A DNA stretch of 64,000 nucleotides, taken from assembly GCA_018670895.1 (NCBI GenBank), contig JABHIS010000005.1, positions 3,757 through 67,756 on the forward strand, read 5' to 3'. The notes under the pieces were generated by a model. It was given only the letters and a program-made list of their open reading frames with translations, ran no database searches and was not told the origin of the DNA. Each line of letters starts with the position of its first letter. Position 1 is the stretch's first letter. This DNA comes from Candidatus Falkowbacteria bacterium. Lineage in GTDB: Bacteria; Patescibacteriota; Patescibacteriia; UBA11705; JABHMO01. The position numbers were made by a program, and so were the translations under genes. This document shows, one piece after another, positions 8,248 through 55,532 of this stretch.

Positions 8248-8324
8248 AATGTTAGTAGATTCAAGTTGATAGATTCAAGTGAACAATTACCAAAATCTTT
8301 AATCTTAAATCATTAATCTGTAAT

Positions 8325-8708: not shown

Positions 8709-8730
8709 ATTGCCTATATCAATTTTAGCA

Positions 8731-9057: not shown

Positions 9058-9172
9058 TTACGTAGACTAATTTTGTCTAAATTTACTTAACGACTATTGA
9101 CAAAATATATAATCTATGCTATAATACTAAGATTTGATGATTGAAAAATAACTTTCCCTTAAGGAGGATACC

Positions 9173-9850: not shown

Positions 9851-9968
9851 TTTCTGACCGCAACGGTCAAGAAAAACTCTTCAATGCATCTATTGGGGAG
9901 TTTTTTTGTCCATTAAAACATAAAAACATGAAAGCATTAAAGCAATTACAGTAAATGTTCTGATGTTT

Positions 9969-11060: not shown

Positions 11061-11081
11061 AAACCAACTTTATAATTCAAT

Positions 11082-11813
11082 TTATTCAGGAAAATATAGC
11101 ATATAATTATGTTTTCTTGAAGATAGCTCCCCAGTCTGTAATTCTGCTTCGACATGTACCCTTACTTGCTCAGGCTCATTATTAATATGCTCGACTGCTG
11201 TTATGCTTATTGATGTGACTTCTTCTTTATCAAGCAAAGATTGCAATCGACTACCGACAATGTTTTCTGGATTCCTCTTACTCTTATCAAGTTGATAATG
11301 TTTATGCAATTCTAATCCAAAAATCGACTTAACAGCCAACGTAGTGATAAAACCGTTCAAAACTTGTTGAACATGATCAGTCTTAATTAATTGATCTGAA
11401 AAAAGCCAAAGCGGAGTATTGTCAAGCATTTTTACTTTATAGAGTAATCCACGACTATCCTCTTGGGTAACTTCTTCAACTTCACACATCTTCCCATGGT
11501 ATGGTTTACCTGGATGCCAAACCATCCCCTCATCACCAACACCAATAAAATATGACTTCCACTCTAAATTAGTCCCTAAAGGTATTTCTTTAGTTTCAAT
11601 GAATTCAACAATCTTTTCTTTCTTAGCGATATAATCACGCATTACTTGAAGCGCCTCTTTATCCCCTGCTTCTGCCTTTGCCTTAAGCTCAGCAAACCCA
11701 AAACCATCTGAGATTACTTCCAACTCAGACATTAATTTATCAAAATGACGTTGCTGAACTTCGGTGAAGCTAGCATGAAGTGCGCGTTCTTGTATTTGCT
11801 CTAGTGATTTCAT
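11082..11813 (-). CDS. Paralog 2 of the family (same N-terminal module, unrelated shorter C-terminal domain)
   Basis: 243 aa. The first about 80 aa are about 90% identical to paralog 1 at the protein level and near-identical at the nucleotide level. The C-terminus is unrelated. Confidence 0.6.
   Translation of the reverse strand: MKSLEQIQERALHASFTEVQQRHFDKLMSELEVISDGFGFAELKAKAEAGDKEALQVMRDYIAKKEKIVEFIETKEIPLGTNLEWKSYFIGVGDEGMVWHPGKPYHGKMCEVEEVTQEDSRGLLYKVKMLDNTPLWLFSDQLIKTDHVQQVLNGFITTLAVKSIFGLELHKHYQLDKSKRNPENIVGSRLQSLLDKEEVTSISITAVEHINNEPEQVRVHVEAELQTGELSSRKHNYMLYFPE
11575..11813 (-). repeat. direct repeat unit copy 2
   Basis: See copy 1. About 90% nucleotide identity to 10820-11060. Confidence 0.6.
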
Positions 11814-11823
11814 TTTATAATAG

Positions 11824-12936
11824 TTAATTTTTTATTTTTAATTTCTCGAAAATCGCAGTTAAAATAATATCCATTAACTCATCCGAAGTATTATAACCTT
11901 TTACACTGTTCTCTGTAGCTCGCCAACAACCAGACTCAGGCTCAACCCAACGTGGGTCTTTTTTTAATTCCTGCCATTTTTCTTTTGCCTCATAGGGACT
12001 ACCCAAAATGGCTTCAGCCATGATACCCATTAGTTGATCAGTTGAAGTTCTCTCTACCTCTTCATCGTGATGATGGTAATTAGACTGTTTCCAACCAAGT
12101 TTTGGATCATAATATTCCTGTTTAAGATTTCCAAATCCCTGTCGAGCTTCTTCTTCCTGACCAAGAAAAAAGTTTACTAATTGATACAAAAGTTGATCTT
12201 TAGAATACAAACTTAAATCAGTAAAGTTTAATGTTTTATTTTGAGTTGTATCTGGGGTCACACTAGTAAACCATGAATCAAACTCTTCCATATAAAACTT
12301 AAGTTTCTTTAAATCTGACAAGCGCTGACCAGCAGTATCAGCAAGATCATTTTTGGGCTGGATCAAAACCATCAAAATACTCAAAAATTGCCCTTCAGCA
12401 TCATACTCTTCAACCCCAAGACTCAGATCGGCACAATTATATAGCCTGTTTTCTCGGTTATACATTTTACTTTCCCACGGCTGTGTTATTGAAGTTTGTA
12501 TGTCACCTGTCAATTGGCCTGCCAATTCAAGAAGAACACAATTCCTATGGGTCACTGCATTACCTACCCCACCAAGTTTTTGGGTTAACATTTGCTTTTG
12601 CTTATCAAAGGCTGAAGTATATAACAATACTTGTAATTTTTCTTTGGCTTTTTCAGCTGTGCCTTCATTTAAAATATTTCGCATAGTTTCAGCGTCTATA
12701 TATGGCATTCGCTTGGTTTCAATAAACTCCACAATTTTTTCTTTCTTTGTAATGTAATCCCGCATAATTTGAAGTGCTTCTTTACTACCCAACTCAGCCT
12801 TTGCTTTAAGATCAGCAAATCCTAAACCACCTGAAATCACTTCTAATTCAGACATTAATTTGTCAAAATGTTGTTGCTGAGCCCTATTAAAGTCAACCTT
12901 TAGTGCACTTTCCTGAATTTGTTCTAATGTTTTCAT
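11824..12936 (-). CDS. Paralog 3 of the family, translationally coupled to the helicase-nuclease
   Basis: 370 aa. N-terminal module MKTLEQIQESALKVDFNRAQQQHFDKLMSELEVISGGLGFADLKAKAELGSKEALQIMRDYITKKEKIVEFIETK. Its ATG overlaps the stop of 12940..15918 in an ATGA junction. Confidence 0.6.
   Translation of the reverse strand: MKTLEQIQESALKVDFNRAQQQHFDKLMSELEVISGGLGFADLKAKAELGSKEALQIMRDYITKKEKIVEFIETKRMPYIDAETMRNILNEGTAEKAKEKLQVLLYTSAFDKQKQMLTQKLGGVGNAVTHRNCVLLELAGQLTGDIQTSITQPWESKMYNRENRLYNCADLSLGVEEYDAEGQFLSILMVLIQPKNDLADTAGQRLSDLKKLKFYMEEFDSWFTSVTPDTTQNKTLNFTDLSLYSKDQLLYQLVNFFLGQEEEARQGFGNLKQEYYDPKLGWKQSNYHHHDEEVERTSTDQLMGIMAEAILGSPYEAKEKWQELKKDPRWVEPESGCWRATENSVKGYNTSDELMDIILTAIFEKLKIKN
12700..12936 (-). 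repeat. direct repeat unit copy 3 (more diverged)
   Basis: Conserved blocks gcctttgc.ttaag.tcagcaaa.cc.aaacc.cctga.at.acttc.aa.tcagacattaatttgtcaaaatg. Confidence 0.5.
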
Positions 12937-42658: not shown

Positions 42659-42913
42659 TTAATCCCCTGCAATCGAAATCAATTCCCAGGAGCTACCGTC
42701 AACTTTGTTAATTTTAACTTTTGCGCCCTCGGCAACTGTATTTCTACTCAACATCTGTAAATTGAACTCTAAATTTTCAGAACTAATATCTGCACCATGT
42801 TCGATCACTGAACCCAAATCAATCAAAATCTTCTTAACCTGCTTGAGGTTATTTTTTTTCGCTTGTTCCAGCACAAGCTTGTGGATTTTGTCCGCTACAT
42901 GAAGATCATGCAT
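42659..42913 (-). CDS. HypA-like nickel-metallochaperone domain protein lacking the C-terminal zinc finger
   Basis: MHDLHVADKIHKLVLEQAKKNNLKQVKKILIDLGSV...SRNTVAEGAKVKI aligns with the HypA N-domain (MHEITL...QAAKHGAKRVTGVWLKIGAF...RGSVAEGCKLHL). It ends without the Cys4 ribbon. Confidence 0.55.
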   Translation of the reverse strand: MHDLHVADKIHKLVLEQAKKNNLKQVKKILIDLGSVIEHGADISSENLEFNLQMLSRNTVAEGAKVKINKVDGSSWELISIAGD

Positions 42914-43046
42914 AATTTTTTGATATATTAATTATAGCATAATATTTATTGTAATTAAAATTACTTTATTGACAAAAGAGGTCTTTATTGTTATATTAAT
43001 AAAAATGAACGTTAACAAGCAGAAATGCTTTATATAGGAGGAGGTT

Positions 43047-43817
43047 ATGGTCTGGACAAGTGCAGATGAAAGCCGAGCACGCAGAGAGGGGTTCAGTGTT
43101 GAGCAAGAAAGAAATCGCCAACGGTATATAGATCACATTAAGGCGAATAATGCTCTACAAGAGAAAGAAAAAGAAAGAAAAAAAAGAGAAAAAGAAAAAG
43201 ATGATGATAAGATGAAAGTCCAGTTAGTATTGATGTTCTTTGTTGCTCCAGTTGTGATTATTTTTATGATTGTCCTTTTAATCATTCAAATATCTGGCAA
43301 CGGTCACATCCTCACCGGTGATTCCAAAATTGCTTCTGAGTATAAGCAAAAGAGAAAGGAAGTAGTAGAACTGCAAGAAAAATTGTCCGAAAAAATAACT
43401 AAACTGGGAGTTGCTGAAACAGAATTCAAAGCAACAATCGCTAGCAATGTTGGGACAATTCAGAGTAACATTAGACGTGGGCAAATCAGGAGCTTCAATG
43501 ATGCAGTAAGGAATCAAGAAAGCAACACCAAACTCAAGATAATTGCCAAAGCACAAGCTTATCTCGAAATCGTGACTGCTGAGAAAAGAGCAGTTGCCAG
43601 AGCGGGTGTTGAGCTTCAAGGAATACGGGCTAATCTTGACCTTGATCTAACAATGCTAAAAGCGACAGATCAAGAAGAAATGGACGATTTGATTAAAAAG
43701 CTTGATAATGTCATCACAAAAATCAAGCCTGTAGCAGAGGAATACGTAATCAATGATTACAACAGAGGTTCCTCAGATCTCAAAAGCACTTGGAATAAAT
43801 ATTTTATTCAGAAGTAG
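43047..43817 (+). CDS. Surface-protein family member A (type II membrane anchor + conserved C-terminal module)
   Basis: SD AGGAGG. N-terminal charged cytoplasmic segment, TM (VQLVLMFFVAPVVIIFMIVLLII), then an ectodomain ending in the family module ...LDLDLTMLKATDQEEMDDLIKKLDNVITKIKPVAEEYVINDYN. Confidence 0.55.
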   Translation: MVWTSADESRARREGFSVEQERNRQRYIDHIKANNALQEKEKERKKREKEKDDDKMKVQLVLMFFVAPVVIIFMIVLLIIQISGNGHILTGDSKIASEYKQKRKEVVELQEKLSEKITKLGVAETEFKATIASNVGTIQSNIRRGQIRSFNDAVRNQESNTKLKIIAKAQAYLEIVTAEKRAVARAGVELQGIRANLDLDLTMLKATDQEEMDDLIKKLDNVITKIKPVAEEYVINDYNRGSSDLKSTWNKYFIQK

Positions 43818-43823
43818 ACGTGG

Positions 43824-43852
43824 ACTCGACAATCTTATTGTCGAGTTTTTAA
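43824..43852 (+). terminator. Intrinsic terminator after family member A
   Basis: ctcgacaa-tctta-ttgtcgag followed by ttttt. Confidence 0.6.
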
Positions 43853-43864
43853 ATTCAGAAAACA

Positions 43865-43893
43865 TTGACAAATAACTAGAAATAAGGGAAAAT
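43865..43893 (+). promoter_or_regulatory. Promoter/5'UTR unit 1 of the surface-protein array
   Basis: TTGACA at 43865-43870. About 85% identical over about 65 bp to the unit at 44524, including aataagggaaaataacctaattg.actttaacaacaa. Confidence 0.5.
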
Positions 43894-43931
43894 AACCTAA
43901 TTGAACTTTAACAACAAAACAAGGGGGAAAC

Positions 43932-44480
43932 ATGCGACATCATACAATATGTTTTTTTACATTAATATTTCTTCTTTGTTTACCCACCTGCAACAAAAGA
44001 GATGCAAAAAAGGAAACTAAGGAAAAATATGAAACTGTAATTTCCTTAATGGAAAAACTACATGAGAAGCATGTCAACATTGACAACACAATAAAAAAGT
44101 TCAAAGACAAAAAAACTGAATTCAAAAAAGCCATCAAAGGGATTAAATCCAAACGTGGAATTTCGTCTTATGCTGAGGCAGAAAACAACAAGCCTTTAAT
44201 GATCCATCTAACAGCCTACCAAAAAGTTGAAGCATATTTAAAAATACTTAAGGAAGAAGATAAAAAAACTGAACAAGCCGCCATTGAATTATATGGTATT
44301 CAGATGCAACTTGAGCTTGACATTGAAATGCTTGAAAGCATAGAAAATGCCGACCTGGAAGAAACACTTAAGCAATTGAATTTAGTGATTGACAAAATCC
44401 AGCCTACAGCAGATAACCTGGTATTAAATGATGAAAACACACCCAAAACGCCACTAGAAAAACTTTTCAATGAACTTTGA
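43932..44480 (+). CDS. Surface-protein family member B (putative lipoprotein, conserved C-terminal module)
   Basis: Signal peptide with Cys (FLLCLPTC|NKRD). C-terminal ...IQMQLELDIEMLESIENADLEETLKQLNLVIDKIQPTADNLVLNDENTPKTPLEKLFNEL. Confidence 0.55.
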   Translation: MRHHTICFFTLIFLLCLPTCNKRDAKKETKEKYETVISLMEKLHEKHVNIDNTIKKFKDKKTEFKKAIKGIKSKRGISSYAEAENNKPLMIHLTAYQKVEAYLKILKEEDKKTEQAAIELYGIQMQLELDIEMLESIENADLEETLKQLNLVIDKIQPTADNLVLNDENTPKTPLEKLFNEL

Positions 44481-44494
44481 AAACAACTCATCAA

Positions 44495-44522
44495 AACCAG
44501 CACCACACCGTGCTGGTTTTTT
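44495..44522 (+). terminator. Intrinsic terminator (duplicated unit)
   Basis: accagcac-cacacc-gtgctggt followed by tttttt. An identical hairpin recurs at 46426-46447. Confidence 0.65.
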
Positions 44523-44523
44523 C

Positions 44524-44552
44524 ATTGACAAATCATAAAAAATAAGGGAAAA
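44524..44552 (+). promoter_or_regulatory. Promoter/5'UTR unit 2
   Basis: TTGACA at 44524-44529. Conserved downstream block and SD GGAGG. Confidence 0.5.
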
Positions 44553-44595
44553 TAACCTAATTGGACTTTGACAACAACCCATTGAGGAGGCCTTA

Positions 44596-46416
44596 ATGAA
44601 ACATTACTTGAATACAATAGTTCTCCTACTTGTTATTATTTTCTTCTCGGTGACCTGCAGTAAAAATGAACAGCCAAATGAAGTCATAGATTCAAAACCC
44701 AACAGCTCCGCTAAACTACTTGCTAAATTCAAGCACACACAAGCAGTTTATGGAATTGACTGGCATCCTGATGGAAAACTAATTGCATCTAGACACTACC
44801 GAGACACAGCTTTCATCTGGAACACTGAAAACAAAACTCGACAATTTGTTCATGATGGCAAGCAACTCACCGACATAAAATTCAGTACTGATGGTAGTTA
44901 CTTAGCCTTTATTGATCACGAAATTTCTAAATATAGCTGTCAGCGCGAATGTCGTTACTCTGACTATGAACGTTGCAATGACTGCAAGAAAAAACACGAG
45001 AACGATTACGATGTGAGATTCTTGTCAAAAGTCTACGACCTTAGACTAAAACATTACTTAAAAGAAATAGCAAGTGGCTCCGCTCAAACAATCTCAGCTG
45101 ACCTCAAGGTATATGTCACCCACGCTCTCGATTCAAAAATAATCTACTTTGATGGGACATACTTCTTTTCCTCCAGCAGTCGTGCAGGGATGGAGACTTT
45201 CATAGAGTCTAGTTCGAAAAATCACTTTTTTCATGAAGTAAAAAGTTATTCTGTGCGAAAAACAGAAGAAACAAAAGAAGGAAATACACACCTCGGCGCA
45301 ATGACAATTTTCTTGTCCACAAAAGGAAATCTGTTAAAGATTTTCAATCAAGCCGACGACGGGAAGGGGCCTCATTGTTCCATAAAACAATGCAGTCATG
45401 ATTACAAAATTATGGCTGCAGAGTGGCAACCCGGAACTAAGAAAATAACAGTTTTAAGTTCTGACAACATTCTAAGTCTTTGGGATAGTTGTTTCTCAGG
45501 TAAACAGCTTTACACCTACAATCACTCTGGCAGTGAAGCAGTGACCCTAAAATGGAATGTATCAGGTGATGTTCTGGCAGTTCAATTCATGAACAATATT
45601 TTACTGTTCAATGAAAAATTGGAACTCCAAAAAACACTGGATATTATGAGTAATGATATTGCCTGGAACAAAGATGGCAATATTTTAGCAGTCATTACCA
45701 AAAATAAAATTTATTTTTGGGACAACCTGAATTCGAATCTAACTTTTCATGAAAGTTCAGAAAAAATTAATGATTTTGCCTGGAATCCGGAATTCAATCA
45801 ATTCGCCCTGGCGACTGAAGTGAATGACGACGAAGGCTTTGTAGAAATTTGGGAGATTGACTCTTCTTATAGAATCATCGTCGCCAACAAAAAGAGAACT
45901 TCCAATAATACAGAACATCAGCTGACAATCAAAGAAGAAACAGTAAAAAAATTAACCACTGTTCGCTCTCTCATAAAACAATTACAAAAAAAGGAAGAAT
46001 CACTATCAGATGATCTTCGATCCTTCCAAACTGACGTAGACAGATACAAATCAACAATCACTGACTTGAAACTACACAACAATATTGCAAGCTATAAAGA
46101 AGCGGTCAAGAATGACCGGATAAACAATTATCTTGTAGCGATGCAAAAAGCTTTGGCCTACATGGACTTTATTAAACATGAGCTTTTAACTACTAGCAAA
46201 AGTTTAGTGGAGTCTGAAGGCACTCAATTACAACTGGAGCTTGATGCAAAAATTCTGGACAGCTTAGACGAGAACAAATTGGACCAGATGATTGCTCAAT
46301 TGGACTTGGTTATCACAAAAATTCAACCAAACGCCCAGGAACTCGTGATTAAAGAAAATGACACACAAAAAATACCATTAGAAAAACTATACAATGAGTA
46401 TTTTGAAGATGAGTAG
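44596..46416 (+). CDS. Surface-protein family member C (lipoprotein-like signal, WD40/beta-propeller repeats, conserved C-terminal module)
   Basis: Signal (FFSVTC|SKNE). WD-like repeats (IDWHPDGKLIAS...IWN, AEWQPGTKKITV...LWD, LKWNVSGDVLAV, DIAWNKDGNILAV...FWD, FAWNPEFNQFALA...IWE). C-terminal ...LQLELDAKILDSLDENKLDQMIAQLDLVITKIQPNAQELVIKENDTQKIPLEKLYNEY. Confidence 0.6.
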   Translation: MKHYLNTIVLLLVIIFFSVTCSKNEQPNEVIDSKPNSSAKLLAKFKHTQAVYGIDWHPDGKLIASRHYRDTAFIWNTENKTRQFVHDGKQLTDIKFSTDGSYLAFIDHEISKYSCQRECRYSDYERCNDCKKKHENDYDVRFLSKVYDLRLKHYLKEIASGSAQTISADLKVYVTHALDSKIIYFDGTYFFSSSSRAGMETFIESSSKNHFFHEVKSYSVRKTEETKEGNTHLGAMTIFLSTKGNLLKIFNQADDGKGPHCSIKQCSHDYKIMAAEWQPGTKKITVLSSDNILSLWDSCFSGKQLYTYNHSGSEAVTLKWNVSGDVLAVQFMNNILLFNEKLELQKTLDIMSNDIAWNKDGNILAVITKNKIYFWDNLNSNLTFHESSEKINDFAWNPEFNQFALATEVNDDEGFVEIWEIDSSYRIIVANKKRTSNNTEHQLTIKEETVKKLTTVRSLIKQLQKKEESLSDDLRSFQTDVDRYKSTITDLKLHNNIASYKEAVKNDRINNYLVAMQKALAYMDFIKHELLTTSKSLVESEGTQLQLELDAKILDSLDENKLDQMIAQLDLVITKIQPNAQELVIKENDTQKIPLEKLYNEYFEDE

Positions 46417-46425
46417 ATAACACAA

Positions 46426-46452
46426 ACCAGCACCACACCGTGCTGGTTTTAT
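46426..46452 (+). terminator. Intrinsic terminator (duplicated unit)
   Basis: Same accagcaccacaccgtgctggt hairpin as at 44495, followed by tttatt. Confidence 0.65.
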
Positions 46453-46454
46453 TA

Positions 46455-46483
46455 TTGACAATAACGTAAAATATTAGTAAGAT
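46455..46483 (+). promoter_or_regulatory. Promoter/5'UTR unit 3
   Basis: TTGACA at 46455-46460, a 17-bp spacer, then TAAGAT. Conserved acttttacaacaaaa block and SD. Confidence 0.5.
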
Positions 46484-46527
46484 ACAATGATTATGAACTT
46501 TTACAACAAAATGACAAGGAGGCCCAA

Positions 46528-48747
46528 ATGTCCAGATGGCTAAAGACAATTATTACTGTTATTATTATCATTTTTGCTTGTTCTTGTAACAAAGACAAAA
46601 AGGCCAAGAAAAATAAGTCAACTCGTCCTGAAGTCGCTGAAAAAAACTCCCCTAACTCCAATACTGAACCAGCTCCCCTCTCACAAGAAAAAGAAGCTCC
46701 ACCAAAGTCAAAAAAAGAAATTTCCGAAGAAAAGCTTGAACATGTAAAGCATCTTCGCAGAAAACTCGAAAGAAAAGAAAGAACCTTGGCTGGCGCACTT
46801 ATTACATACAAAGACAAAATTTCTATTTTTGTTCAAGAAATCAAACAAGAACGTAACCGTAGAAACTTGGTTGAATACAATCAGGCAATTTCAAGTAATT
46901 CAATCAAGCATAATCTCGAGGCAATTCAAAAAGCTGAGGCCTACTGGGGAATTACTAATAGGGAAAAAGTAAAAACAAAACTGGCAATTGTCGACGCAGA
47001 AGGAACTGAAAAACTACTTGATCTAGACATCACCATGTTTAGCACCATGCCTGAAGATGAAATCGACAAACTACTTGATGAACTTGACCTTGTAATTAAT
47101 AGAATCCAACCGACAGCCAGAGATCTTGTTATCACAGACAAGGAAACTGTGCTTACTCCTCTTGATGAGATTTACGAAAAACATATTCGTAAAGAGGAAC
47201 GTGAGCGAGAAAAAAAGGAAATTGAGCGTAAAAAAAAAGCTGAAGCTGACCGGTTAGAACGAGAGCGTCAGGTAAAACTAGCAAAAGAAAAAGCGTTAGC
47301 AGATACCCAGGCTCGTGCAGCCCTTAATGCTGAAGCTCGTCGCCAAGCGTTAATTGCTAGGAAACAAGCCGATGAAGAGGCTGCTAGTCAAGAGAGGACT
47401 GCCAGACTACAAGCAATCGCCGAGGCTACACGCCAAGCAAAAATTGCCAGACAGCAAATAACAGCCGAAGAAAACCGCATAGCTGATGAAGTAGTAAAAC
47501 AAATTGAGTATAAGAAACGCGAAGCTGAAAATCGTGCCCGAGAAAAAGCTGCTGAACTTGCTAGTAAGCAAAAAACAGCAGCAGCGATTGCTAACATCAA
47601 AATTATCAAACCCACTATCTGGACTTCTATTGCATATTACAGACCTGGGGGTGATGGTGCAGGTTACATCCGTTGGTCAAATGATAGCAAAGCAGTGGCT
47701 ATCACCACCTCATCAAAAATGACTATTAAGGGTGTTCCTCAAAGCACAACTTATGAGCTTGAATCTAATTACGATAACAGCGACTATATAACCGACATGA
47801 TCTGGTCTCAAAGCAAAACCAAAATTGCAATCTATTATTCACATTCTTGTGCACTGGAAAGAGGAAACGCCAAGATTGCAATTTACTCGTTAACAAATGA
47901 TAAAGAGCTCTGGAGGGTGGAAGTCGAATGCTCCCAAGCCGCTAGTTTCCTTGGTTGGTTTGGTGATTATATTGTCCTTAAAGCATCCGCTGGGTACAGT
48001 AGAAATTTTCACATTTACATTATCAATACGAAAACCAAGAAAACTCAATCATTCACAGCTGACGCGATAACCCCAGTAAACAACTCCTCTGTCTTTGCTG
48101 CAAGCTCAAAAAGAATAATCCAAGTCAGTCTTTCTGACAGAACAATTCTAAAAGAGTTTAAGTTTTGTCGAGATGATGACGAGTCTCTTTATTATTCTTT
48201 TTGCCCAGGAGAGATTGACATTCATAAACTCGCCTACACGAGCGGGCATCTAATTTCATCAGAGTCGCCACAAAACGGAGAAAGTAGCTTCTCCATTTGG
48301 GACACAACTTCTGGAAATAAACTCCACTGGTTTAAAGGTGACGAACCAAGAGATCTTTGGTGGCTAAAAGACGGCAAAACAGCAGTTATTGCTTTGTCGT
48401 CTGGCACAATTTTTACAGTAAATGCGAAAAGTGGATCAATTTACGAGAAAAAGCTCGTAGATGGTGCGATTGGCTTTTATGGCTATAATGTAAACACTTG
48501 GTCCACTAAAAAACCTCATCTTGTTATCAATAAAAATTCTCCTCAGCACGAAACAGCTCTTAATGAAAAAGCAGGTTCGTACAATACTCTCTTTGTCATG
48601 GATATTAGGGACCAACAAACAAAGGCCGTCTTGGTTATGGAGTCAGATATCTCAGATTCTGTCAGACTTTCATGGAGCCCAAACGGCAAGTACCTCGCAA
48701 TTGGAGACAAGGGACTCCTTCATGTTTTCAATGTAAGCAATATTTGA
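46528..48747 (+). CDS. Surface-protein family member D (lipoprotein-like, conserved module near N-terminus, long coiled coil, C-terminal beta-propeller)
   Basis: Signal IIIFAC|SCNKDKK. Module ...KLLDLDITMFSTMPEDEIDKLLDELDLVINRIQPTARDLVITDKETVLTPLDEIYEK. E/K/R/A-rich coiled coil of about 170 aa. C-terminal repeats SWSPNGKYLAIGD...VFNV, WWLKDGKTAVIAL...FTVN. Confidence 0.6.
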   Translation: MSRWLKTIITVIIIIFACSCNKDKKAKKNKSTRPEVAEKNSPNSNTEPAPLSQEKEAPPKSKKEISEEKLEHVKHLRRKLERKERTLAGALITYKDKISIFVQEIKQERNRRNLVEYNQAISSNSIKHNLEAIQKAEAYWGITNREKVKTKLAIVDAEGTEKLLDLDITMFSTMPEDEIDKLLDELDLVINRIQPTARDLVITDKETVLTPLDEIYEKHIRKEEREREKKEIERKKKAEADRLERERQVKLAKEKALADTQARAALNAEARRQALIARKQADEEAASQERTARLQAIAEATRQAKIARQQITAEENRIADEVVKQIEYKKREAENRAREKAAELASKQKTAAAIANIKIIKPTIWTSIAYYRPGGDGAGYIRWSNDSKAVAITTSSKMTIKGVPQSTTYELESNYDNSDYITDMIWSQSKTKIAIYYSHSCALERGNAKIAIYSLTNDKELWRVEVECSQAASFLGWFGDYIVLKASAGYSRNFHIYIINTKTKKTQSFTADAITPVNNSSVFAASSKRIIQVSLSDRTILKEFKFCRDDDESLYYSFCPGEIDIHKLAYTSGHLISSESPQNGESSFSIWDTTSGNKLHWFKGDEPRDLWWLKDGKTAVIALSSGTIFTVNAKSGSIYEKKLVDGAIGFYGYNVNTWSTKKPHLVINKNSPQHETALNEKAGSYNTLFVMDIRDQQTKAVLVMESDISDSVRLSWSPNGKYLAIGDKGLLHVFNVSNI

Positions 48748-48752
48748 CAATA

Positions 48753-48780
48753 AACCCACCTTCGACAAGGTGGGTTTTTA
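48753..48780 (+). terminator. Intrinsic terminator
   Basis: aacccacc-ttcgacaa-ggtgggtt followed by ttta. Confidence 0.6.
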
Positions 48781-48781
48781 C

Positions 48782-48810
48782 TTGACAAAACCATTAAAAT
48801 GTATAAAACT
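48782..48810 (+). promoter_or_regulatory. Promoter unit 4 (extended -10)
   Basis: TTGACA at 48782-48787 and a tgtataaaa extended -10-like element. Conserved ctttaaca block and SD GGAGG before 48845. Confidence 0.5.
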
Positions 48811-48844
48811 AGTATGAAAGGTTGATCTTTAACAGAAGGAGGTC

Positions 48845-49696
48845 GTGATGACGAAAAGATTAAAATTCTCCAGACTTATCCTAGGTATTATCTGTATCGC
48901 ACTTGCAATTCTGATTTTCATGGCCTTAATTCGTTTTGGCACTGTATTTGCTTTTCTCATGATCTATCCGTGGATTTCCGACGCCTTGCAATCCTCTGCT
49001 GGAATGAATCACTGGCTAGCAAGTATAATCGCCTTTGTTCCGGCAGTCGTCGGGGTAATCGGCATTGGGATGCTTTTCTCCTGGAATAGGAAAAGACGAA
49101 CTATCGGCATGGTCATGGCGGGTATCGCCTATCTCACCACGTGCGCCTTTATGTACTCCATTGAGGCAGATCGCTCATTTGACCCCATTACAGGAAAAGC
49201 AAATAAATGCTATGCTGCAGGCTTAAACGGTTATGAAGAAATTTCTTGTGAATGGAAATTCCATCCCGAGACTGGCAATCCCGTCATCACAGACCTTGGT
49301 GAAATTAAAAAAATCATCACCTCAATGAATGTTTCAGAAAGTGAACCAAGGATCTCCAATAAGGTCCGTCCAAACAAAAACCTACGTTTCTTCTCTGTTG
49401 ATGGAACACCTATGTATTGGTACTATGAATTTCCAGATGGCGTAATTGACATGTTTGACTCCCCTGGTAGACATCCACACTTCAACACAGTACTGCAGCC
49501 CATCACGCCAGAAATTGTAAAAATCGTTCTTTATCCTCAAGATAATTGGGATATTGAAAGAGTTAATTTGCCAGACTCAAAGCCCATCAGCCAGGGTGAC
49601 CCAAAAGCGCTTTCATCTGCCAACAGCGGAAACGATAGCGCTATGGAAGAACTTCGCGATCTCTATATCGAGAGAAAAAAGCAACTAAAACAGTAA
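48845..49696 (+). CDS. hypothetical membrane protein with extracytoplasmic C-terminal domain (GC-rich)
   Basis: 283 aa. 3-4 TM helices, then a soluble domain. Higher GC than background. Confidence 0.45.
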   Translation: MMTKRLKFSRLILGIICIALAILIFMALIRFGTVFAFLMIYPWISDALQSSAGMNHWLASIIAFVPAVVGVIGIGMLFSWNRKRRTIGMVMAGIAYLTTCAFMYSIEADRSFDPITGKANKCYAAGLNGYEEISCEWKFHPETGNPVITDLGEIKKIITSMNVSESEPRISNKVRPNKNLRFFSVDGTPMYWYYEFPDGVIDMFDSPGRHPHFNTVLQPITPEIVKIVLYPQDNWDIERVNLPDSKPISQGDPKALSSANSGNDSAMEELRDLYIERKKQLKQ

Positions 49697-49756
49697 ATCA
49701 CAAACACAAGGCCCACCGTAACACGGAGGGTCTTTTTTATACTTGGTAATTAAAAT

Positions 49757-51034
49757 TTAATGCGTCGCGCAACTGATACATGGATCGTATGCCCGAATCA
49801 AAGTTTTTATTAACGAATCTCTCTTCTTATCTGACAACTTTTTAATTTGCGGCAAATATTTCTCAAGATCTTTTTCCAAATTAGCCAAAAACATAGCGGT
49901 TGGTGTAATTACATTGCAATGAATAATTTCGCCCACCTTGTTAAATTCATATTCATGATACAAGATCCCACGAGGTGCCTCCATCACAGCATAACCCTTA
50001 CCAGCCTTAACTATGAAATCAACTTTTAGGTTTTTCATAAACTTCGGTTTTGCTCGCAGTTTCTCATATTGGACAAAAAGTTTATTTATCTCCTCAATTG
50101 AATTAATAATCTCAGTTGTCTGGGCTACTATATTATAGAATGAATTATAACACGGCAAGTTCACTTTTAGCTTATTCCAAGAAGCTTTTGCCTCTTTGTT
50201 CAGCTGAGCATAATTATTGTTCACTCGAGCAAGAGCGCCAACCATGAACGTTTCTTTCATATGATGTGAGCGTTTAACTTTTTCATATGGTAAAACAGTT
50301 TCTTGCACGTCACTTAGGAAATCCTCGACTTTATCATAACTATCATTATCTGAGAAATAAATGCTCCCATCATAAACTGCATATTCATTTTTATTTTTCA
50401 AAGAAACATAATTTGTTGGTCTTTGAAACTTTGGTAATTTATATTTCAAAACCACATCATGAATTTGCCTAGCTTGTAATAGAACTTGCTTTTGTTTTTG
50501 CATTAATTCTTTAAGTTCAACAAAGTCTGGCTCAACATTAAATCCACCAACTACACTATTAATCGGATGAACGGTTCGACCTCCAACAACTCGCGCTAAC
50601 TGCACTCCCCAATCACGAACTTGAAGAGCAATTTTTGACTCTTTGGTATACTTATTTATCAAAGCAAAATTATTACTAACACCTACGATATCAGGAAACG
50701 AGAAAAAGAAAGCATGTACTGCATGACTATGAATTATTTGCGCATTTTCTAGGATCTTACGAAGCAATATTATTTCCGGAGTTACCCTGACACTAAAAGC
50801 TGCCTCAACGGCCTTAATTGAAGTTAAATTATGCACAATCGGGCATACACCACAAATCCGCGAAGTTACAATCGGAGCTTCGTAATATTTTCTATTTAAT
50901 AATATTCCTTCGATCAAACGAGCTCCCTCTTCTGTGTCCACGCGAGCTTGAGCAAAATCATTACCAAGCAAAGCCCCAACGAAACTCAGGTGGCCTTCAG
51001 TTTTGGCGATGTGATTTATTTTAATAGTTTTCAT
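49757..51034 (-). CDS. [NiFe]-hydrogenase large (alpha) subunit, group-3-like, without C-terminal cleavable extension
   Basis: N-terminal RICGVCPIVH (RxCGxCxxxH). The C-terminus ends exactly at DPCISCATH (DPCxxCxxH). Confidence 0.85.
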   Translation of the reverse strand: MKTIKINHIAKTEGHLSFVGALLGNDFAQARVDTEEGARLIEGILLNRKYYEAPIVTSRICGVCPIVHNLTSIKAVEAAFSVRVTPEIILLRKILENAQIIHSHAVHAFFFSFPDIVGVSNNFALINKYTKESKIALQVRDWGVQLARVVGGRTVHPINSVVGGFNVEPDFVELKELMQKQKQVLLQARQIHDVVLKYKLPKFQRPTNYVSLKNKNEYAVYDGSIYFSDNDSYDKVEDFLSDVQETVLPYEKVKRSHHMKETFMVGALARVNNNYAQLNKEAKASWNKLKVNLPCYNSFYNIVAQTTEIINSIEEINKLFVQYEKLRAKPKFMKNLKVDFIVKAGKGYAVMEAPRGILYHEYEFNKVGEIIHCNVITPTAMFLANLEKDLEKYLPQIKKLSDKKRDSLIKTLIRAYDPCISCATH

Positions 51035-52053
51035 AAAGGATATTTTATTTTACCTGTATTAACAATTAACATTTTTTTATCTTTCGGTAATTTGTTTTTC
51101 AATTGAAGCATCAACGCCAACCCAGCAATACCAGAGGCCTCACAATCTATTTGTTGGCACGCAGCAACTCTCAAGGCCTCATCAATAAATTGTTCTTTAA
51201 CGTTATAAACATCCGATTTCGAACCACAATAACCAGCATAGCGATAAAGTTTAATCCACTGCTCATCATAATTAACAAAGGGCAAATGAGGGGAAAACAA
51301 TTTATTAGCCTTAGTCTTCGGATTGTTAGTGGTCGACCCAAAAAAATTACAAGCTCTCAATTTATTCACTCTACCCCTAAACCTTGGGTCATGATGACTT
51401 GTCACAACCTCCCGTTTATTAATATTTAAAATATTTTCAAATAAATGTCCCGACCCAAACGGAACAAAACAATAGTCAGGAGAACTGTTAATAATTTCAT
51501 AACTTAACCAGTCATAATATCTAGTTGTCGGATCAAGTGCTTCACTTGACGTAATATCGAAACCATTTTTATTTTTTGTTAATCGCAAAATTTCATTCCA
51601 AGAAAACGCTTTTTCACTTAAATCAGTTTTAAATATCTTGCAACCAGTTTTATACAAAAATTTCAGAATTTCATCATCAATGTGATTATCAACTAGTACT
51701 CGCAAATTAGGTAATTTATACTTTTTCAATTGCACCTGAATGGCAATCGCTGCTGAACCTGATGAGATTATTGAAACATCGGGTAATTTACTTATTTGTC
51801 CCCCTTTTTTTGACAACAAGAAATCACGATAAGTCACTACCATTTCCCAAGCCATTCTATCTTTATGCGTCCCCGTTGGATTATGACTTTCATCCTTCAA
51901 CCAAACATTATTAAATCCAGGTACTTTTATTTTGTAAGTTGGAGTAGCGGGAAACTTCGGATCATCAACTGGAAATTCGGGCTTTTCTGGATTATTTTCC
52001 GATGCAATTACAATTGACTTTAATATTTTTTCTTCTTGCTTGGTTAATGCCAT
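51031..52053 (-). CDS. PLP-dependent fold-type II enzyme, threonine-synthase-like, embedded in the hydrogenase operon
   Basis: LKDESHNPTGTHKDRMAW. Compare the threonine synthase / cysteate synthase motif NPTGSFKDRG, where the Lys binds the cofactor as a Schiff base. 4-bp overlaps on both sides. Confidence 0.6.
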   Translation of the reverse strand: MALTKQEEKILKSIVIASENNPEKPEFPVDDPKFPATPTYKIKVPGFNNVWLKDESHNPTGTHKDRMAWEMVVTYRDFLLSKKGGQISKLPDVSIISSGSAAIAIQVQLKKYKLPNLRVLVDNHIDDEILKFLYKTGCKIFKTDLSEKAFSWNEILRLTKNKNGFDITSSEALDPTTRYYDWLSYEIINSSPDYCFVPFGSGHLFENILNINKREVVTSHHDPRFRGRVNKLRACNFFGSTTNNPKTKANKLFSPHLPFVNYDEQWIKLYRYAGYCGSKSDVYNVKEQFIDEALRVAACQQIDCEASGIAGLALMLQLKNKLPKDKKMLIVNTGKIKYPL

Positions 52054-52066
52054 AAATAATTTCTAA

Positions 52067-52834
52067 TTATTTTCTAAGTTTATTTCTTTTCTTCCAAACT
52101 AACTCTTTAACGCCAAAAACTTCAAAAAATTTAGAGATTTCTTTATCTGAATATTTTTCTTTTAATTTTTTGATTAAATTATCTACTTCCGCATCTTCAA
52201 CTAAACCACGACAACCCCAACAGCCTTGCATTGATTTTGTACAAATAGCATCACATCCGCCTTGCGTAATTGGCCCCATACAGACCTCACCATATTGCAA
52301 AACACACTTTTGTCCCCTCACTTGGCACTCATAACAAACTGGATTTTGAGTAATAGCTGGTTCTTTGCCAATTAATAGCTGGTATACAAAATCATAAAAT
52401 TCTTCTCCTGTTATTGGACATCCTGGGATAGAAAAATCCACCTTAACGTATGCACTTAGTGGCTTGACATCCAAATTCTCAATTCCCTTTTCACCTTGAT
52501 AAACATAATCATGAATTTTGTTTTTATCTTGATACATTTTTAAATGATAAATTCCACCCATATGTGCGCAACTACCAATTGAGATGACATACTTTGAATT
52601 TTTCCTAACCAACTTTAACTGTTTGATATCTCGCGTGGTCAAAGGGCTACCTTCAACAAAAACAATATCGTACTTTTCATCTGGTGAGTGTTCGTCCTCT
52701 TCAAATAAACGAAAATTTACTATTTCAATTTTTTCATTCAATTCAAGTAACTTATTTGGTAAATCTAAAATCGCAACACAGCAACCTTCACAGCCGGTCA
52801 ATGGGAATATTCCTACTTTTATTTTGTTATTCAT
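52067..52834 (-). CDS. [NiFe]-hydrogenase small (delta) subunit with extra C-terminal Fe-S clusters
   Basis: LTGCEGCCVAI ... SIGSCAHMGG ... IPGCPITGEEF. C-terminal Cys clusters CYECQ...CVLQYGEVC...GGCDAIC...GCWGC. Confidence 0.8.
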   Translation of the reverse strand: MNNKIKVGIFPLTGCEGCCVAILDLPNKLLELNEKIEIVNFRLFEEDEHSPDEKYDIVFVEGSPLTTRDIKQLKLVRKNSKYVISIGSCAHMGGIYHLKMYQDKNKIHDYVYQGEKGIENLDVKPLSAYVKVDFSIPGCPITGEEFYDFVYQLLIGKEPAITQNPVCYECQVRGQKCVLQYGEVCMGPITQGGCDAICTKSMQGCWGCRGLVEDAEVDNLIKKLKEKYSDKEISKFFEVFGVKELVWKKRNKLRK

Positions 52835-52867
52835 AGTAATAAGTAAAATGTAAAAGGTAAAAAGTAA

Positions 52868-53236
52868 TCACAACTGTTTTTGAATTGATTTTATCAAACC
52901 ATTTATAAGTCTTTTCACCTCATCTGCATGATTTACTAACTCTTCACAAAAACTGCTTTCTAATATATTAAGACCTCTTGAAACAAGTAAAAAACTTTGC
53001 ACTTCTGACAACGAACCCCTCGCTTGATAATAAAATCGAATCTTATCTTTGAAATAATAGCGAGAAAATCCTTCAGCAATGTTGGCGGTGATCGATATTG
53101 AAGCTCTTCGGATTTGACTTATAAGTCCAAATTTTTCTTCAGCAGGAAAATCCGATGTCACCTCATAAACTTTTAAAGTAAATTTATATGCACGTTGCCA
53201 AGCCTTTAAATCGTAATAATTATTTATTTTATTCAT
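52868..53236 (-). CDS. Four-helix-bundle protein (TIGR02436-like)
   Basis: 122 aa. ...ASISITANIAEGFSRYYFKDKIRFYYQARGSLSEV... Confidence 0.7.
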   Translation of the reverse strand: MNKINNYYDLKAWQRAYKFTLKVYEVTSDFPAEEKFGLISQIRRASISITANIAEGFSRYYFKDKIRFYYQARGSLSEVQSFLLVSRGLNILESSFCEELVNHADEVKRLINGLIKSIQKQL

Positions 53237-53269
53237 AACAGTCCCTTATTACCCTTTACACTTTACTGG

Positions 53270-53743
53270 TTACTTTTTACGTTGTTCCAAAATTGCCTTT
53301 AATTCTTCAGGTCGATTGGTTACAAAAAAGTATGGTCGTCTTTGGCCAGCAACTGTAATAACTAAACCTTTACCTCCCCGAGGCACATAACCAACTGTTT
53401 TGTCACGACCAAATCGAATACCGTAACCTAAATAATTTTGAAACTTATACTCACTAAATTCTATTTTTTTTATTTTACTTATTAAAATACGCTTGCGGAA
53501 TTTCATAAACCCGAAGATTAAATGCGTATCACTTACCTTGATGTTTAACTCTCGAAAAGACGCCAAAATGAAAACATTCAACAATAAAATAATTGCTAAT
53601 ACAGTTTTTGAAGCGTTGTCCAAAGCAATTGGTTTATCTGTGTACTGCGACATTAGAATTATAAGAAAAATCAAACAGGTGATTACCAGAATCGCAGTAA
53701 TTAAATGATAAGTTTGAACCTTGTCTTTGAAAATTGTTGGCAT
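53270..53743 (-). CDS. Membrane protein with bacterial PH-like (YdbS-type) domain
   Basis: 157 aa. Two N-terminal TM helices, then a soluble domain of about 90 aa. Architecture like bPH_2 proteins. Low certainty. Confidence 0.4.
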   Translation of the reverse strand: MPTIFKDKVQTYHLITAILVITCLIFLIILMSQYTDKPIALDNASKTVLAIILLLNVFILASFRELNIKVSDTHLIFGFMKFRKRILISKIKKIEFSEYKFQNYLGYGIRFGRDKTVGYVPRGGKGLVITVAGQRRPYFFVTNRPEELKAILEQRKK

Positions 53744-53763
53744 ATTTTTTATCTATTCACTCA

Positions 53764-54561
53764 TTAAAAATAATTTACACTTCTTAAAAATTCATAATTA
53801 AACACAGGACCATCTTTGCAAATATACTTGGACCCAATAGCACAATGCTGACACACTCCTACTCCGCAATGCATTCTTTTTTCCAATGAAAAATACATAT
53901 TAGCTGGCTCAACCTTTTTGGCCAAAAGTTCTTTCACAACGAACTTGTACATTATCGCTGGCCCACAGACAAACACTAACGAATTCTTCAATAACTTCTT
54001 TTTCTTTATTAAGTCCGTAACAAATCCTTTTTGTTTAGCAAACCCGGGAATAGTTTCATTTTCCAAAATCAATCCAAAATCATGTTTGTTTTTTATTTTT
54101 GAATACTCTCTTTTGAATACTAGTGATTCCTGTGTCGAACAACCAACCAACACTTGAAGCTTAATATCTTTACGATTGCGATTTTCTTCGAACACGCTTC
54201 GCAATGGAATAAAACCACAACCACCACCGATCAGAATTAAATTTTTAGTAACCTCAGGAAATCCGTTACCAAAAGGTCCACGCACAAAAGCTTTATCGCC
54301 AACCTTCAGGTTATTTAATTTAGCAGTTAATTCTCCAACACTACGAATTGTTAAACAAAAATGTTTATCTGACAACTTTGGGCTCGAAGAAATTGAAATA
54401 GGGCATTCACCAAAACCTGGTAAGCCAATTTGCATAAACTGCCCTGCCAAAAATTTTAATTCATTTTGCTTGTCCAAACTAAAATAAAAAGTATTGGTAA
54501 TTGAATTTTCTTTAACTACTTTAATAACCTTTGCTGGTTGTAGGGCATATTGATTTTTCAT
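53764..54561 (-). CDS. Hydrogenase gamma subunit (FAD/NAD(P)-binding ferredoxin-reductase-like with C-terminal 2Fe-2S)
   Basis: 265 aa. PyrK/HydG-like. C-terminal CGVGVCQHCAIGSKYICKDGP. Confidence 0.75.
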   Translation of the reverse strand: MKNQYALQPAKVIKVVKENSITNTFYFSLDKQNELKFLAGQFMQIGLPGFGECPISISSSPKLSDKHFCLTIRSVGELTAKLNNLKVGDKAFVRGPFGNGFPEVTKNLILIGGGCGFIPLRSVFEENRNRKDIKLQVLVGCSTQESLVFKREYSKIKNKHDFGLILENETIPGFAKQKGFVTDLIKKKKLLKNSLVFVCGPAIMYKFVVKELLAKKVEPANMYFSLEKRMHCGVGVCQHCAIGSKYICKDGPVFNYEFLRSVNYF

Positions 54562-55532
54562 ACTTTTTTCAATTCTTGCAAATTCTCAGCAATATTAATT
54601 TCAACTGGGCAAGTTTTGTAACAACGCATACAACTAACACAACCATAGTAATCGAACTCATCAGGAATGCGTACAAATTTATGATAATACCAAAAATATA
54701 ATTTCTTTTTTACTGAATCCAATTCTTTATTACCACCCGTTATTTCAGAAAACTTTGGATAAAAACAGGTTGTCCATTGTCGTGTTTTCACGACTTGATC
54801 AAATTCAACCTTATCCTTCTGGTCAAAGCAAAAACAGGTTGGACAATGGATTGAGCACTTCCCGCAACTAAGACAAATTTTAGCTAATTTATCCCATAGT
54901 GGGTGGTCAGGATTGTTCAATATTGCTAGCTTTTTTTGTTCAATCAAAGGATTGGGACCATGCTCAGGTATAAATCCAGCAAATTCAATATTTTCGTAGT
55001 CTTCAATTTTACTTTTTTCCAGAAGCTGTTGACCTTTTTCCGAGCCGGAAAACAAAATCAAATTACCACTCTTCTGTCTTTCAACAAAAACATCAAAAAT
55101 AAGATGCTCTAACACATCTTCTTCATATTTTTTATTAAACACTTTGTATTTACGTAAATCATCCTCAATGCCATTAGTTAAACCAATATAATGTAAGGAT
55201 TGTCGACGCTTTTGAAAATAATAATCTTTAGCAAAAACCTGTTCAAATAAAGCCAAGGCTCGTAAATCTAAAATATTTAATCCAAGAATAAAAATAGGCT
55301 TTATTTTTTCATTAATAACTTTAGCTACGTCCTTGGAATATGTCGCCATATCTTGTTTAGCTGGCAAAACAATTGACTTGAATGAATTCAATGGTATGTC
55401 ACCAGACCAGTCCATATCCCCCGGTTTAAAAATTTGTTTAACTAAAACCATTTCTCCATCTTTAACTGGAGAATAAACGAAACCCTTTTCTAGCAATTTT
55501 GCTACAAATTTATCAAATTCAGACTTTTTCAT
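54558..55532 (-). CDS. Hydrogenase beta subunit (4Fe-4S dicluster protein, sulfhydrogenase HydB-like)
   Basis: 324 aa. CLSCGKCSIHCPTCFCFDQKD and CVSCMRCYKTCPVEI. Confidence 0.75.
   Translation of the reverse strand: MKKSEFDKFVAKLLEKGFVYSPVKDGEMVLVKQIFKPGDMDWSGDIPLNSFKSIVLPAKQDMATYSKDVAKVINEKIKPIFILGLNILDLRALALFEQVFAKDYYFQKRRQSLHYIGLTNGIEDDLRKYKVFNKKYEEDVLEHLIFDVFVERQKSGNLILFSGSEKGQQLLEKSKIEDYENIEFAGFIPEHGPNPLIEQKKLAILNNPDHPLWDKLAKICLSCGKCSIHCPTCFCFDQKDKVEFDQVVKTRQWTTCFYPKFSEITGGNKELDSVKKKLYFWYYHKFVRIPDEFDYYGCVSCMRCYKTCPVEINIAENLQELKKV

Follow-up and report, generated by a model that had tools for sequence, protein, structure and literature searches.

The 64-kb stretch of DNA analysed here (hereafter the window) is transcribed almost wholly from the minus strand, and the exception is a 6.7-kb run of five plus-strand open reading frames (ORFs), which we call A to E and over exactly which the GC skew is flat. 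The run is flanked by hypA (42659-42913, minus strand) and by the gene for a [NiFe]-hydrogenase large subunit (49757-51034, minus strand). Because proteins identical to A and E are annotated in metagenome-assembled genomes (MAGs) of Candidatus Falkowbacteria, the source can be placed among the Patescibacteria (CPR, for candidate phyla radiation). An earlier interpretation of the window, made without database searches (the sequence-only reading), had proposed an array of four surface proteins in a reduced bacterium. The identity of the organism as a CPR bacterium is in keeping with that proposal, and A to D are present in the ORF list where they had been placed, but the count of four has to be raised, as a fifth unit, E, has its own TTGACA promoter motif, upstream box and terminator. 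The five genes are as follows.

43047-43817, plus strand: gene A, 256 amino acids; charged N-terminal tail of about 55 residues, one transmembrane (TM) helix (about residues 56-82) and C-terminal module (93-256)
43932-44480, plus strand: gene B, 182 amino acids; signal peptide ending in Cys20 (LPTC, a non-canonical lipobox), then the module only
44596-46416, plus strand: gene C, 606 amino acids; signal peptide with Cys21, WD40 propeller (about 26-440) and C-terminal module (444-606)
46528-48747, plus strand: gene D, 739 amino acids; canonical lipobox (IFAC, Cys18), Pro/Lys-rich linker, module (60-223), helix and divergent WD40 propeller (about 381-739)
48845-49696, plus strand: gene E, 283 amino acids, GTG start; three TM helices at the N-terminus plus a conserved soluble domain (about 175 residues); module absent

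The best explanation that we can offer for this locus is a five-gene plus-strand island encoding a co-regulated set of membrane-anchored, outward-facing proteins.

The module shared by A to D

All six pairs among A to D align by BLASTP over 110-189 residues at 31-39% identity (composition-corrected E-values of 1e-16 to 4e-30 against a database of five sequences), and the four-way alignment of the module contains 24 invariant columns, with the motif L(D/N)xVI..I.P.A..V among them. These alignments and the module positions agree with the sequence-only reading that the genes form a paralogous, modular family whose shared helical module is C-terminal in A, B and C and follows the lipobox in D; the module is about 160 residues long, however, and not 100-150 as had been estimated. 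An exhaustive HMMER search of a library of 1.84 billion protein cluster representatives with a six-sequence profile returned 306 representatives at E<=1e-3, 125 at <=1e-10 and 25 at <=1e-30. Nearly all of the matches span the whole 164-position profile, and the best relatives reach E-values of 1e-40 to 1e-65. A word-indexed search with module profiles returned 3-4 relatives only and did not return B, C and D themselves.

The module had been described as unrecognised, and the libraries that we searched bear this out. In Pfam-A 2025 and NCBIfam 20.0 the module region of the window proteins has no match (there were sub-threshold chance hits, none of which covers the module in more than one paralogue), no Pfam family covers the module in 126 relatives, and no relative was found among PDB sequences, where the best hit has E = 0.044. 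PADLOC 2.0 yielded no match to the array proteins, and PHROGs v4 none over the module, its single weak hit lying over the charged tail and TM helix of A; a defence-system or phage origin was rejected on these results. Literature searches returned nothing on the module family, and the source names of 30 relatives are all 'hypothetical' or generic. Wall-anchoring signals were looked for in A to D as well: there is neither an SLH match in the Pfam scan nor a C-terminal LPXTG motif with a hydrophobic tail, and each protein ends with the hydrophilic terminus of its module or propeller.

An AlphaFold2 model of the B module (mean predicted local distance difference test score, pLDDT, of 86; predicted template modelling score of 0.74) consists of three long antiparallel helices (residues 3-56, 68-114 and 120-141) and two short C-terminal turns. 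The module is thus predicted to be an elongated antiparallel three-helix bundle of about 8 nm, the length of its 54-residue helix. Foldseek found no hit to this model at E<=1e-3 and only generic helical matches, with sequence identities of 2-18%. The bundle resembles other three-helix bundles, such as tektin, TraC, Fap1 NR-alpha, the IpaB N-terminal domain and BAR domains, in architecture, a likeness that we do not take as evidence of homology or function.

Compositional bias might produce a similarity of this kind, in which case the module would be a coiled-coil artefact with no real domain family behind it. Its helices account for the whole module, K, E and L are abundant in it, and some small members (cluster members of P0095) bear the label 'coiled-coil DUF342' in IMG (COG1340). 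Against this, full-length profile matches persist to 1e-65 with the HMMER bias filter on, non-heptad residues are conserved (Y, D, G and P, and the IQ+..AY and Y.P.A motifs), and the module is consistently placed with respect to the anchor. In a scan of 126 family members, none matched DUF342 at E<=0.001 or any Pfam coiled-coil family, and we regard the IMG label as a low-specificity automatic assignment. The artefact is, in our judgement, scarcely credible, and the similarity is not limited to low-complexity coiled coil. We are confident that the module defines a new, moderately widespread domain family of membrane-anchored, predicted outward-facing proteins encoded in tandem arrays.

Anchors and partner domains

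Every product carries a predicted membrane anchor, as the sequence-only reading had claimed for A to D: TM helices in A and E, and a signal peptide with a Cys in B, C and D. The soluble part is in each case predicted to be outside. In A, a Lys/Arg-rich stretch precedes the single TM helix, which by the positive-inside rule leaves the N-terminus inside, and the module is therefore predicted to lie outside. The cytoplasmic tail of A includes a slippage-prone, imperfect AAGAAA tandem repeat (43159-43201, about 7.7 copies), which is in frame and encodes Lys/Glu-rich sequence. B, C and D have a short basic N-terminus, a hydrophobic core and a Cys at position 18-21. In a regular-expression test (PROSITE PS51257-type, as distinct from SignalP or LipoP), which looked for [LVI..][ASTVI..][AGS]-C with the Cys near positions 15-35, only D has a strict lipobox (IFAC), and B (LPTC) and C (VTC), with Thr at -1, fit a relaxed pattern. 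Of the three proteins proposed to be lipoprotein-like, all have the Cys after the hydrophobic core, and D alone has the canonical lipobox. Among signal-peptide-type relatives in the loci that we fetched from other genomes, all 17 have a Cys at the end of the core and 9 of the 17 a strict lipobox, which is present in 32 of 152 module-family representatives. These patterns make lipidation of B, C and D a reasonable prediction.

The WD40-like propellers proposed for C and D were also found, although only that of C is clear-cut. The C propeller scores 42.4 bits with PF00400 (cutoff 27) and 42.9 bits with PF12894 (cutoff 22.9), and the Cys-rich segment that had been noticed in C is a four-Cys insert within it (CxxxC-x7-CxxC; C115, C119, C127 and C130), all four residues of which are kept in the orthologue of a close relative (locus L004). 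The D propeller is a divergent WD40: it scores 24.6 bits with PF12894 (cutoff 22.9) and matches several propeller families at 1e-5 to 1e-6, a profile of D-type C-terminal regions finds only WD40 chains in the PDB (ATG16L1 at 1e-6 and WDR1 at 2.5e-5), and the region aligns with the first blades of C (hhalign, probability 91%). Between the module and the propeller of D there is indeed a long charged helix, shorter than the 170 residues suggested earlier: about 145 residues (roughly 218-362) are free of Pro and Gly, and A, E, K and R make up about 57% of the surrounding 181-residue stretch. If continuous, this helix would be about 20 nm long. The soluble domain of E contains two invariant Cys and is predicted by the positive-inside rule to face outward; E has no match in Pfam, NCBIfam or PDB sequence searches.

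Across the 150 best representatives of the family, the module stands by itself in 41, is followed by a C-terminal extension in 45, is preceded by an N-terminal extension in 45 and lies mid-protein in 23. Partner domains recognised by Pfam among 126 relatives are WD40 (about 7), ankyrin (2) and TPR (1), and there is one pilin-type N-terminus. The module lies directly beside the membrane anchor in most members inspected; in members with a long acidic N-terminus, a single TM helix is placed 40-60 residues before the module in 22 of 22.

This position beside the membrane would also suit an envelope-organising or sensing apparatus that makes no contact with a host. It might, for example, tether the wall or S-layer, or be a sensor close to the membrane in which the helical bundle of the module detects a ligand or partner. 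Polar residues (K, N, Q, Y, D and P) are conserved at scattered positions throughout the bundle, the long cytoplasmic N-terminal regions of some relatives would suit transmembrane signalling, and relatives outside CPR (GC 0.47-0.51) keep a pair of one large and one small module gene. However, no signalling output domain (kinase, GGDEF or HTH) was present in the 126 members scanned and, unlike in classical sensor bundles, no second TM helix brackets the module. We consider an apparatus of this kind quite unlikely.

Promoters, the 5'UTR box and terminators

A perfect TTGACA is present upstream of all five genes, followed in A to D, 17 nt further on, by a -10-like hexamer (TATATT, GAAAAT, GAAAAT and TAAGAT, respectively), and all five have a GGAGG-type ribosome-binding site and, downstream, a GC-rich hairpin with a T-run. 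Judged by sequence pattern, each gene qualifies as an independent unit with a sigma-70-type promoter and an intrinsic terminator, for which -35 and -10 elements at 16-18 nt spacing and a downstream hairpin with T-run were required. The earlier claim that each of A to D has its own TTGACA promoter, a shared block in the 5' untranslated region (5'UTR) and a terminator is upheld at this level. The elements, all on the plus strand, are listed here.

42969-43041, plus strand: promoter and 5'UTR of A; -35 TTGACA (42969-42974), -10 TATATT (42992-42997), box TTAACAA (43012-43018), Shine-Dalgarno GGAGG (43037-43041)
43822-43850, plus strand: hairpin and T-run after A, intrinsic-terminator-like by pattern; kept after the A orthologue in L004
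43863-43928, plus strand: promoter/5'UTR cassette of B, copy 1 of a 66-nt repeat; -35 at 43865, -10-like GAAAAT (43888-43893), box TTAACAA (43908-43914)
44496-44520, plus strand: terminator hairpin after B, identical to that after C
44523-44588, plus strand: promoter/5'UTR cassette of C, copy 2 of the 66-nt repeat; -35 at 44525, box TTGACAA (44568-44574)
46426-46450, plus strand: terminator hairpin after C, identical to that after B
46455-46522, plus strand: promoter and 5'UTR of D; -35 at 46455, -10 TAAGAT (46478-46483), box TTTACAA (46500-46506), Shine-Dalgarno (46518-46522)
48755-48779, plus strand: terminator hairpin after D, by pattern
48782-48842, plus strand: promoter and 5'UTR of E; TTGACA (48782-48787), box TTAACAG (48829-48835), Shine-Dalgarno (48838-48842)
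49710-49738, plus strand: hairpin and T-run after E, between E and the convergent hydrogenase large-subunit gene

The sequence-only reading had also noted an identical hairpin after B and C and inferred that terminator and promoter segments are repeated, and both points are confirmed. The hairpin ACCAGCACCACACCGTGCTGGTTTT is the same at the two sites, a 38-nt repeat of terminator and -35 element follows B and C (95% identity), and the 66-nt repeat of promoter and 5'UTR is 83% identical between them; B and D have in common an 18-nt box, TGAACTTT[A/T]ACAACAAAA. The non-coding sequences that flank B and C (43863-43928 and 44523-44588; 44494-44531 and 46424-46461) have 81-89% identity, as against 58% nucleotide identity between the coding modules of the two genes, so that the regulatory cassettes are either under stronger constraint than the proteins or homogenised by recombination. 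The D orthologue in L004 carries a C-type promoter cassette and not a D-type one. Together with the identity of the B and C flanks, this suggests recombination or gene conversion of promoter cassettes.

The consensus layout reads terminator, TTGAC(A/T), 17 nt, (T/C)AAGAT, about 15 nt, TT(G/A/T)ACAA(C), about 10 nt, GGAGG. This promoter layout recurs in related genomes, even before the non-homologous E genes, and is kept in L001, L004, L009, L012-L014, L016 and L017. The A layout, for example, is retained upstream of the A orthologue in L004, and the D promoter resembles that of a D-like gene in L001. In the window units the box, TT(G/A/T)ACAA, lies about 25 nt 5' of the start codon. In the form TT[GAT]A[CT]AA, at -18 to -39, it precedes 20 of the 26 array genes, drawn from eight genomes, that have a promoter of their own, vs 3 of 45 control ORFs of the window. 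Because the 8-mer is not enriched window-wide (39 observed vs 31 expected) and the 13-mer (at most one mismatch) is confined within the window to the array, the box is position-specific rather than genome-wide. We rejected the idea that it is a second, downstream promoter in Falkowbacteria, where the -10 element would fall on the Shine-Dalgarno sequence or the start codon. The box may be an operator, an RNA element or a translational element.

A comparable arrangement was seen in L016, where three module genes (about 7900-12860) have nearly identical promoter cassettes of about 100 nt with a second TTGACAAT about 30 nt past the -10 element, a double-TTGACA design as in Falkowbacteria.

Phase variation was rejected, since scans of the array for repeats and inverted repeats were negative: there were no homopolymer or slippage tracts at the promoters and no invertible segments, and the one inverted pair of note is formed by the two terminators, which are palindromic. 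The tandem repeats in the array are in-frame Lys/Glu-coding tracts only (43159-43201 and 47191-47239).

Arrays in related genomes

Named members of the module family come from Falkowbacteria, Parcubacteria or the 'Patescibacteria group'. The family reaches beyond CPR, since two loci (L010 and L015) belong to genomes that are larger and richer in GC (0.47-0.51); chemotaxis and PAS genes occur in one of the two. In all loci examined but L011, where a single module gene is present, the module genes form clusters, and their number varies from 2 to at least 10 across the fetched loci, which bears out the array expansion and contraction that the sequence-only reading had suggested looking for.

Window: four module genes (A to D) and E
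L004 (close relative): A', C' and D', without B
L001: three module genes and E
L008: two module genes and E
L009: two module genes
L012: six module genes and E
L013 and L014: four module genes each, and E
L016: three module genes
L017 (Parcubacteria): at least ten module genes in 12 kb, all with a terminator and a TTGACA promoter of their own
L010 and L015 (non-CPR): one large and one small module gene each

E lies within the arrays of five loci besides the window (L001, L008, L012, L013 and L014). Among the 7 Falkowbacteria-type loci fetched, 5 have E alongside module genes, and one of the remaining two ends before the E position. Relatives of E were found only in Falkowbacteria/Patescibacteria. 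In L012-L014 a TM-type module gene stands just 5' of E, directly adjacent in L014, and at most 20 nt 3' of E there is a gene of the small lipoprotein type. A neighbour-joining tree of the modules groups subtypes across genomes, with TM-anchored, small lipoprotein and large propeller lipoprotein types recurring; B adjoins C in this tree, in keeping with B as a lineage-specific derivative.

The setting of these arrays bears on whether they could serve the neighbouring [NiFe]-hydrogenase, for instance as a membrane anchor or maturation factor. The site between hypA or pgk and the large-subunit gene is kept in the window, L001, L008, L012, L013 and L014. The array, however, is carried on the other strand and has promoters and terminators of its own; the proteins that it encodes are predicted to lie outside the membrane, and the subunits of the hydrogenase (Fer4, FAD/NAD-binding, Oxidored_q6 and large subunit) presumably resemble soluble group-3-type enzymes. 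The module pair of L009 sits among NAD-metabolism genes with no hydrogenase, and L010, L015, L016 and L017 are likewise without hydrogenase genes. Because neither L009 nor the more distant arrays show this adjacency, we read it as inherited synteny and rejected a functional link, which we hold to be highly improbable.

Several observations on individual loci are recorded here. The contig of L001/L007 (CAYSUN010000045.1) is in a MAG titled 'uncultured Gammaproteobacteria', yet it is syntenic with the Falkowbacteria loci (module genes, E and NiFe hydrogenase) and is probably mis-binned. Its D-like gene (1069-3005 in L001) is split into a 240-residue lipoprotein with the module and, after 190 nt without a promoter, a 340-residue WD40 ORF without a signal peptide; WD40-like sequence extends 5' of the ATG of the latter, which points to a frameshift, a pseudogene or an assembly error. 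Transglutaminase-core (papain-fold) genes lie in or beside the arrays of L016 (15402-16196) and L017 (6494-8216), with none in the window, and are a possible recurrent array partner.

Evolutionary rates and the question of an adhesin repertoire

Rates were compared between the window and its close relative L004. Amino-acid identity is 95% for enolase, 89% for Pgk and 94% for HypA, vs 69% for A, 74% for C and 47% for the N-terminal part of D (the A orthologue P0003 is 69-72% identical). Array genes thus evolve several-fold faster than the flanking housekeeping genes, as is usual for exposed proteins. Within the orthologues the conserved and variable parts are distributed as follows.

A: module 71%, cytoplasmic tail 60%
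C: module 88%, propeller 70%
D: module 73%, linker 46%, helix 21%

The module is, on these sequence comparisons, the best-conserved part within orthologues and not the variable part.

The sequence-only reading had pictured the array as a host-attachment or adhesin repertoire, in which interchangeable surface proteins would each act alone in attachment or as a coat, the module serving as a common stalk and tandem duplication supplying variants. Much of what we found is compatible with that picture: the units are independently transcribed (at the pattern level), module copy number ranges between 2 and at least 10, B is an addition particular to its lineage, the array evolves fast relative to its neighbours, the partner domains are binding repeats (WD40, Ank and TPR), and the weak structural neighbours of the module include the three-helix surface proteins Borrelia BBH37, trypanosome ISG75 and Fap1. 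On the other hand, those structural matches are not significant, the array promoters have no invertible segments or slippage tracts, the subtypes and E have been kept together in different genomes, conservation within the orthologues is highest in the module, and many members are only anchor and module. We are left with a repertoire of independent adhesins as a possible explanation, though on the unlikely side.

The closest known parallels to such a repertoire are the multigene surface-lipoprotein families of wall-less or host-associated bacteria, such as Mycoplasma Vlp/Vsa/Vsp and Borrelia PFam12/BBH37. These too are tandem, monocistronic paralogues with near-identical promoter, 5'UTR and signal-peptide regions, with largely helical ectodomains on lipid anchors (predicted in the case of the array) and with copy numbers that vary between strains, and BBH37 is, as noted, among the weak fold neighbours of the module. 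Unlike them, the array has no phase-variation machinery at its promoters; there is no sequence relationship; its shared part is a conserved domain under stronger constraint than the rest; and it includes a TM-anchored member and the polytopic E, with subtypes conserved across genomes. A second parallel lies with propeller proteins of the envelope and periplasm, such as the beta-propeller lipoprotein BamB, TolB and YncE, and with extended helical spacers such as TolA domain II or ER/K single alpha-helices, in that a propeller is tethered by a predicted lipid anchor and, in D, a long charged helix separates anchor and head; the array propellers are of WD40 type, however, rather than PQQ-like or TolB-type, and no Tol, Bam or Pal genes are nearby.

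A proposed co-regulated membrane-anchored assembly

We favour, with a probability of roughly one half, a co-regulated and possibly heteromeric membrane-anchored assembly. Its shared stalk and assembly element next to the membrane would be the module, and its outward binding parts would be the propellers. We favour it because the subtypes and E are retained together across genomes, because the module is the constrained part, because many relatives consist of anchor and module without a binding domain, and because all units share one regulatory cassette. In such an assembly the module would form the constant functional core, and the subtypes, probably together with E, would associate through it into a heteromeric complex. 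The variable parts hung on the module – the WD40 propeller of C, the rigid helix of about 20 nm and WD40 propeller of D, and Ank, TPR or LRR-like repeats in relatives – would present binding surfaces beyond the wall, for which the host cell surface and the organism's own envelope or S-layer are candidate partners. The shared promoter/5'UTR cassette could let one signal switch all units, while separate promoters and terminators may allow subunits to be made in differing amounts.

A number of points weigh against this assembly. The protein-protein contacts that it would require among A to E are putative, and independent promoters and terminators, a copy number of 2 to at least 10, the missing B in L004 and fast evolution (dN/dS, the ratio of nonsynonymous to synonymous rates, is 0.13-0.32 for array genes vs 0.02-0.06 for housekeeping genes between the window and L004, rough ratios because dS is near saturation) also fit independent surface proteins. 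Promoters, transcription starts and terminators are pattern matches, which across the region are no commoner than in shuffles; what is non-random about them is their placement and conservation. The association of the box with array genes has a Fisher p of about 1e-9, a value that overstates independence because the genes are related. The module of C is C-terminal and distant in sequence from the anchor. With regard to lipidation, the -1 residue, Thr in B and C, is D, Y, H or R in several relatives, and no Lgt- or LspA-like motif was found within the 64-kb window. The AlphaFold model of E is poor, with a pLDDT of 60 overall and below 50 in the soluble domain.

A more far-reaching version would make the module the hetero-oligomerisation core of an undescribed envelope machine, one that is common across Patescibacteria and distantly related to counterparts elsewhere among bacteria. 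The subtype paralogues and E would assemble via the module and project WD40, Ank or TPR heads for host-cell contact, and all units would be switched through the operator-like TTGACAA box in the 5'UTR. We offer this version as a speculation that is unlikely to hold.

CPR bacteria are generally considered single-membraned and, to our knowledge, the surface molecules by which they attach are, type IV pili aside, largely unknown. All cultivated Patescibacteria reportedly live attached to other microbes (bioRxiv 10.1101/2024.11.25.624915). The kind of system that we describe is familiar and the fold of the module unremarkable; the new parts are the shared domain, its partner E and the 5'UTR box, which appear to be undescribed in the libraries and literature searched. 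We believe that the module family, being searchable, can flag candidate envelope or attachment systems in lineages not yet in culture and that it yields testable predictions on lipidation, assembly and co-regulation. If the module is an assembly domain, it merits a family entry of its own and could guide cryo-electron tomography and proteomics of CPR surfaces.

Other features of the window

The [NiFe]-hydrogenase operon next to the array (49757-55532, minus strand) encodes Fer4, FAD/NAD-binding, Oxidored_q6 small and large subunits. Two genes interrupt the operon, one for a pyridoxal-phosphate-dependent enzyme (51031-52053) and the other a 23S-rRNA-IVP/bAvd-like four-helix gene (52868-53236), and hypA is split off from it by the plus-strand array. 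Further along, a 971-residue ORF (60209-63124, minus strand) matches Pfam MVP_shoulder at 3e-28 and the Vault_3 repeat at 3.5e-9 and so represents a major-vault-protein-like gene; it sits in a locally GC-rich stretch (0.48 vs about 0.35 elsewhere).

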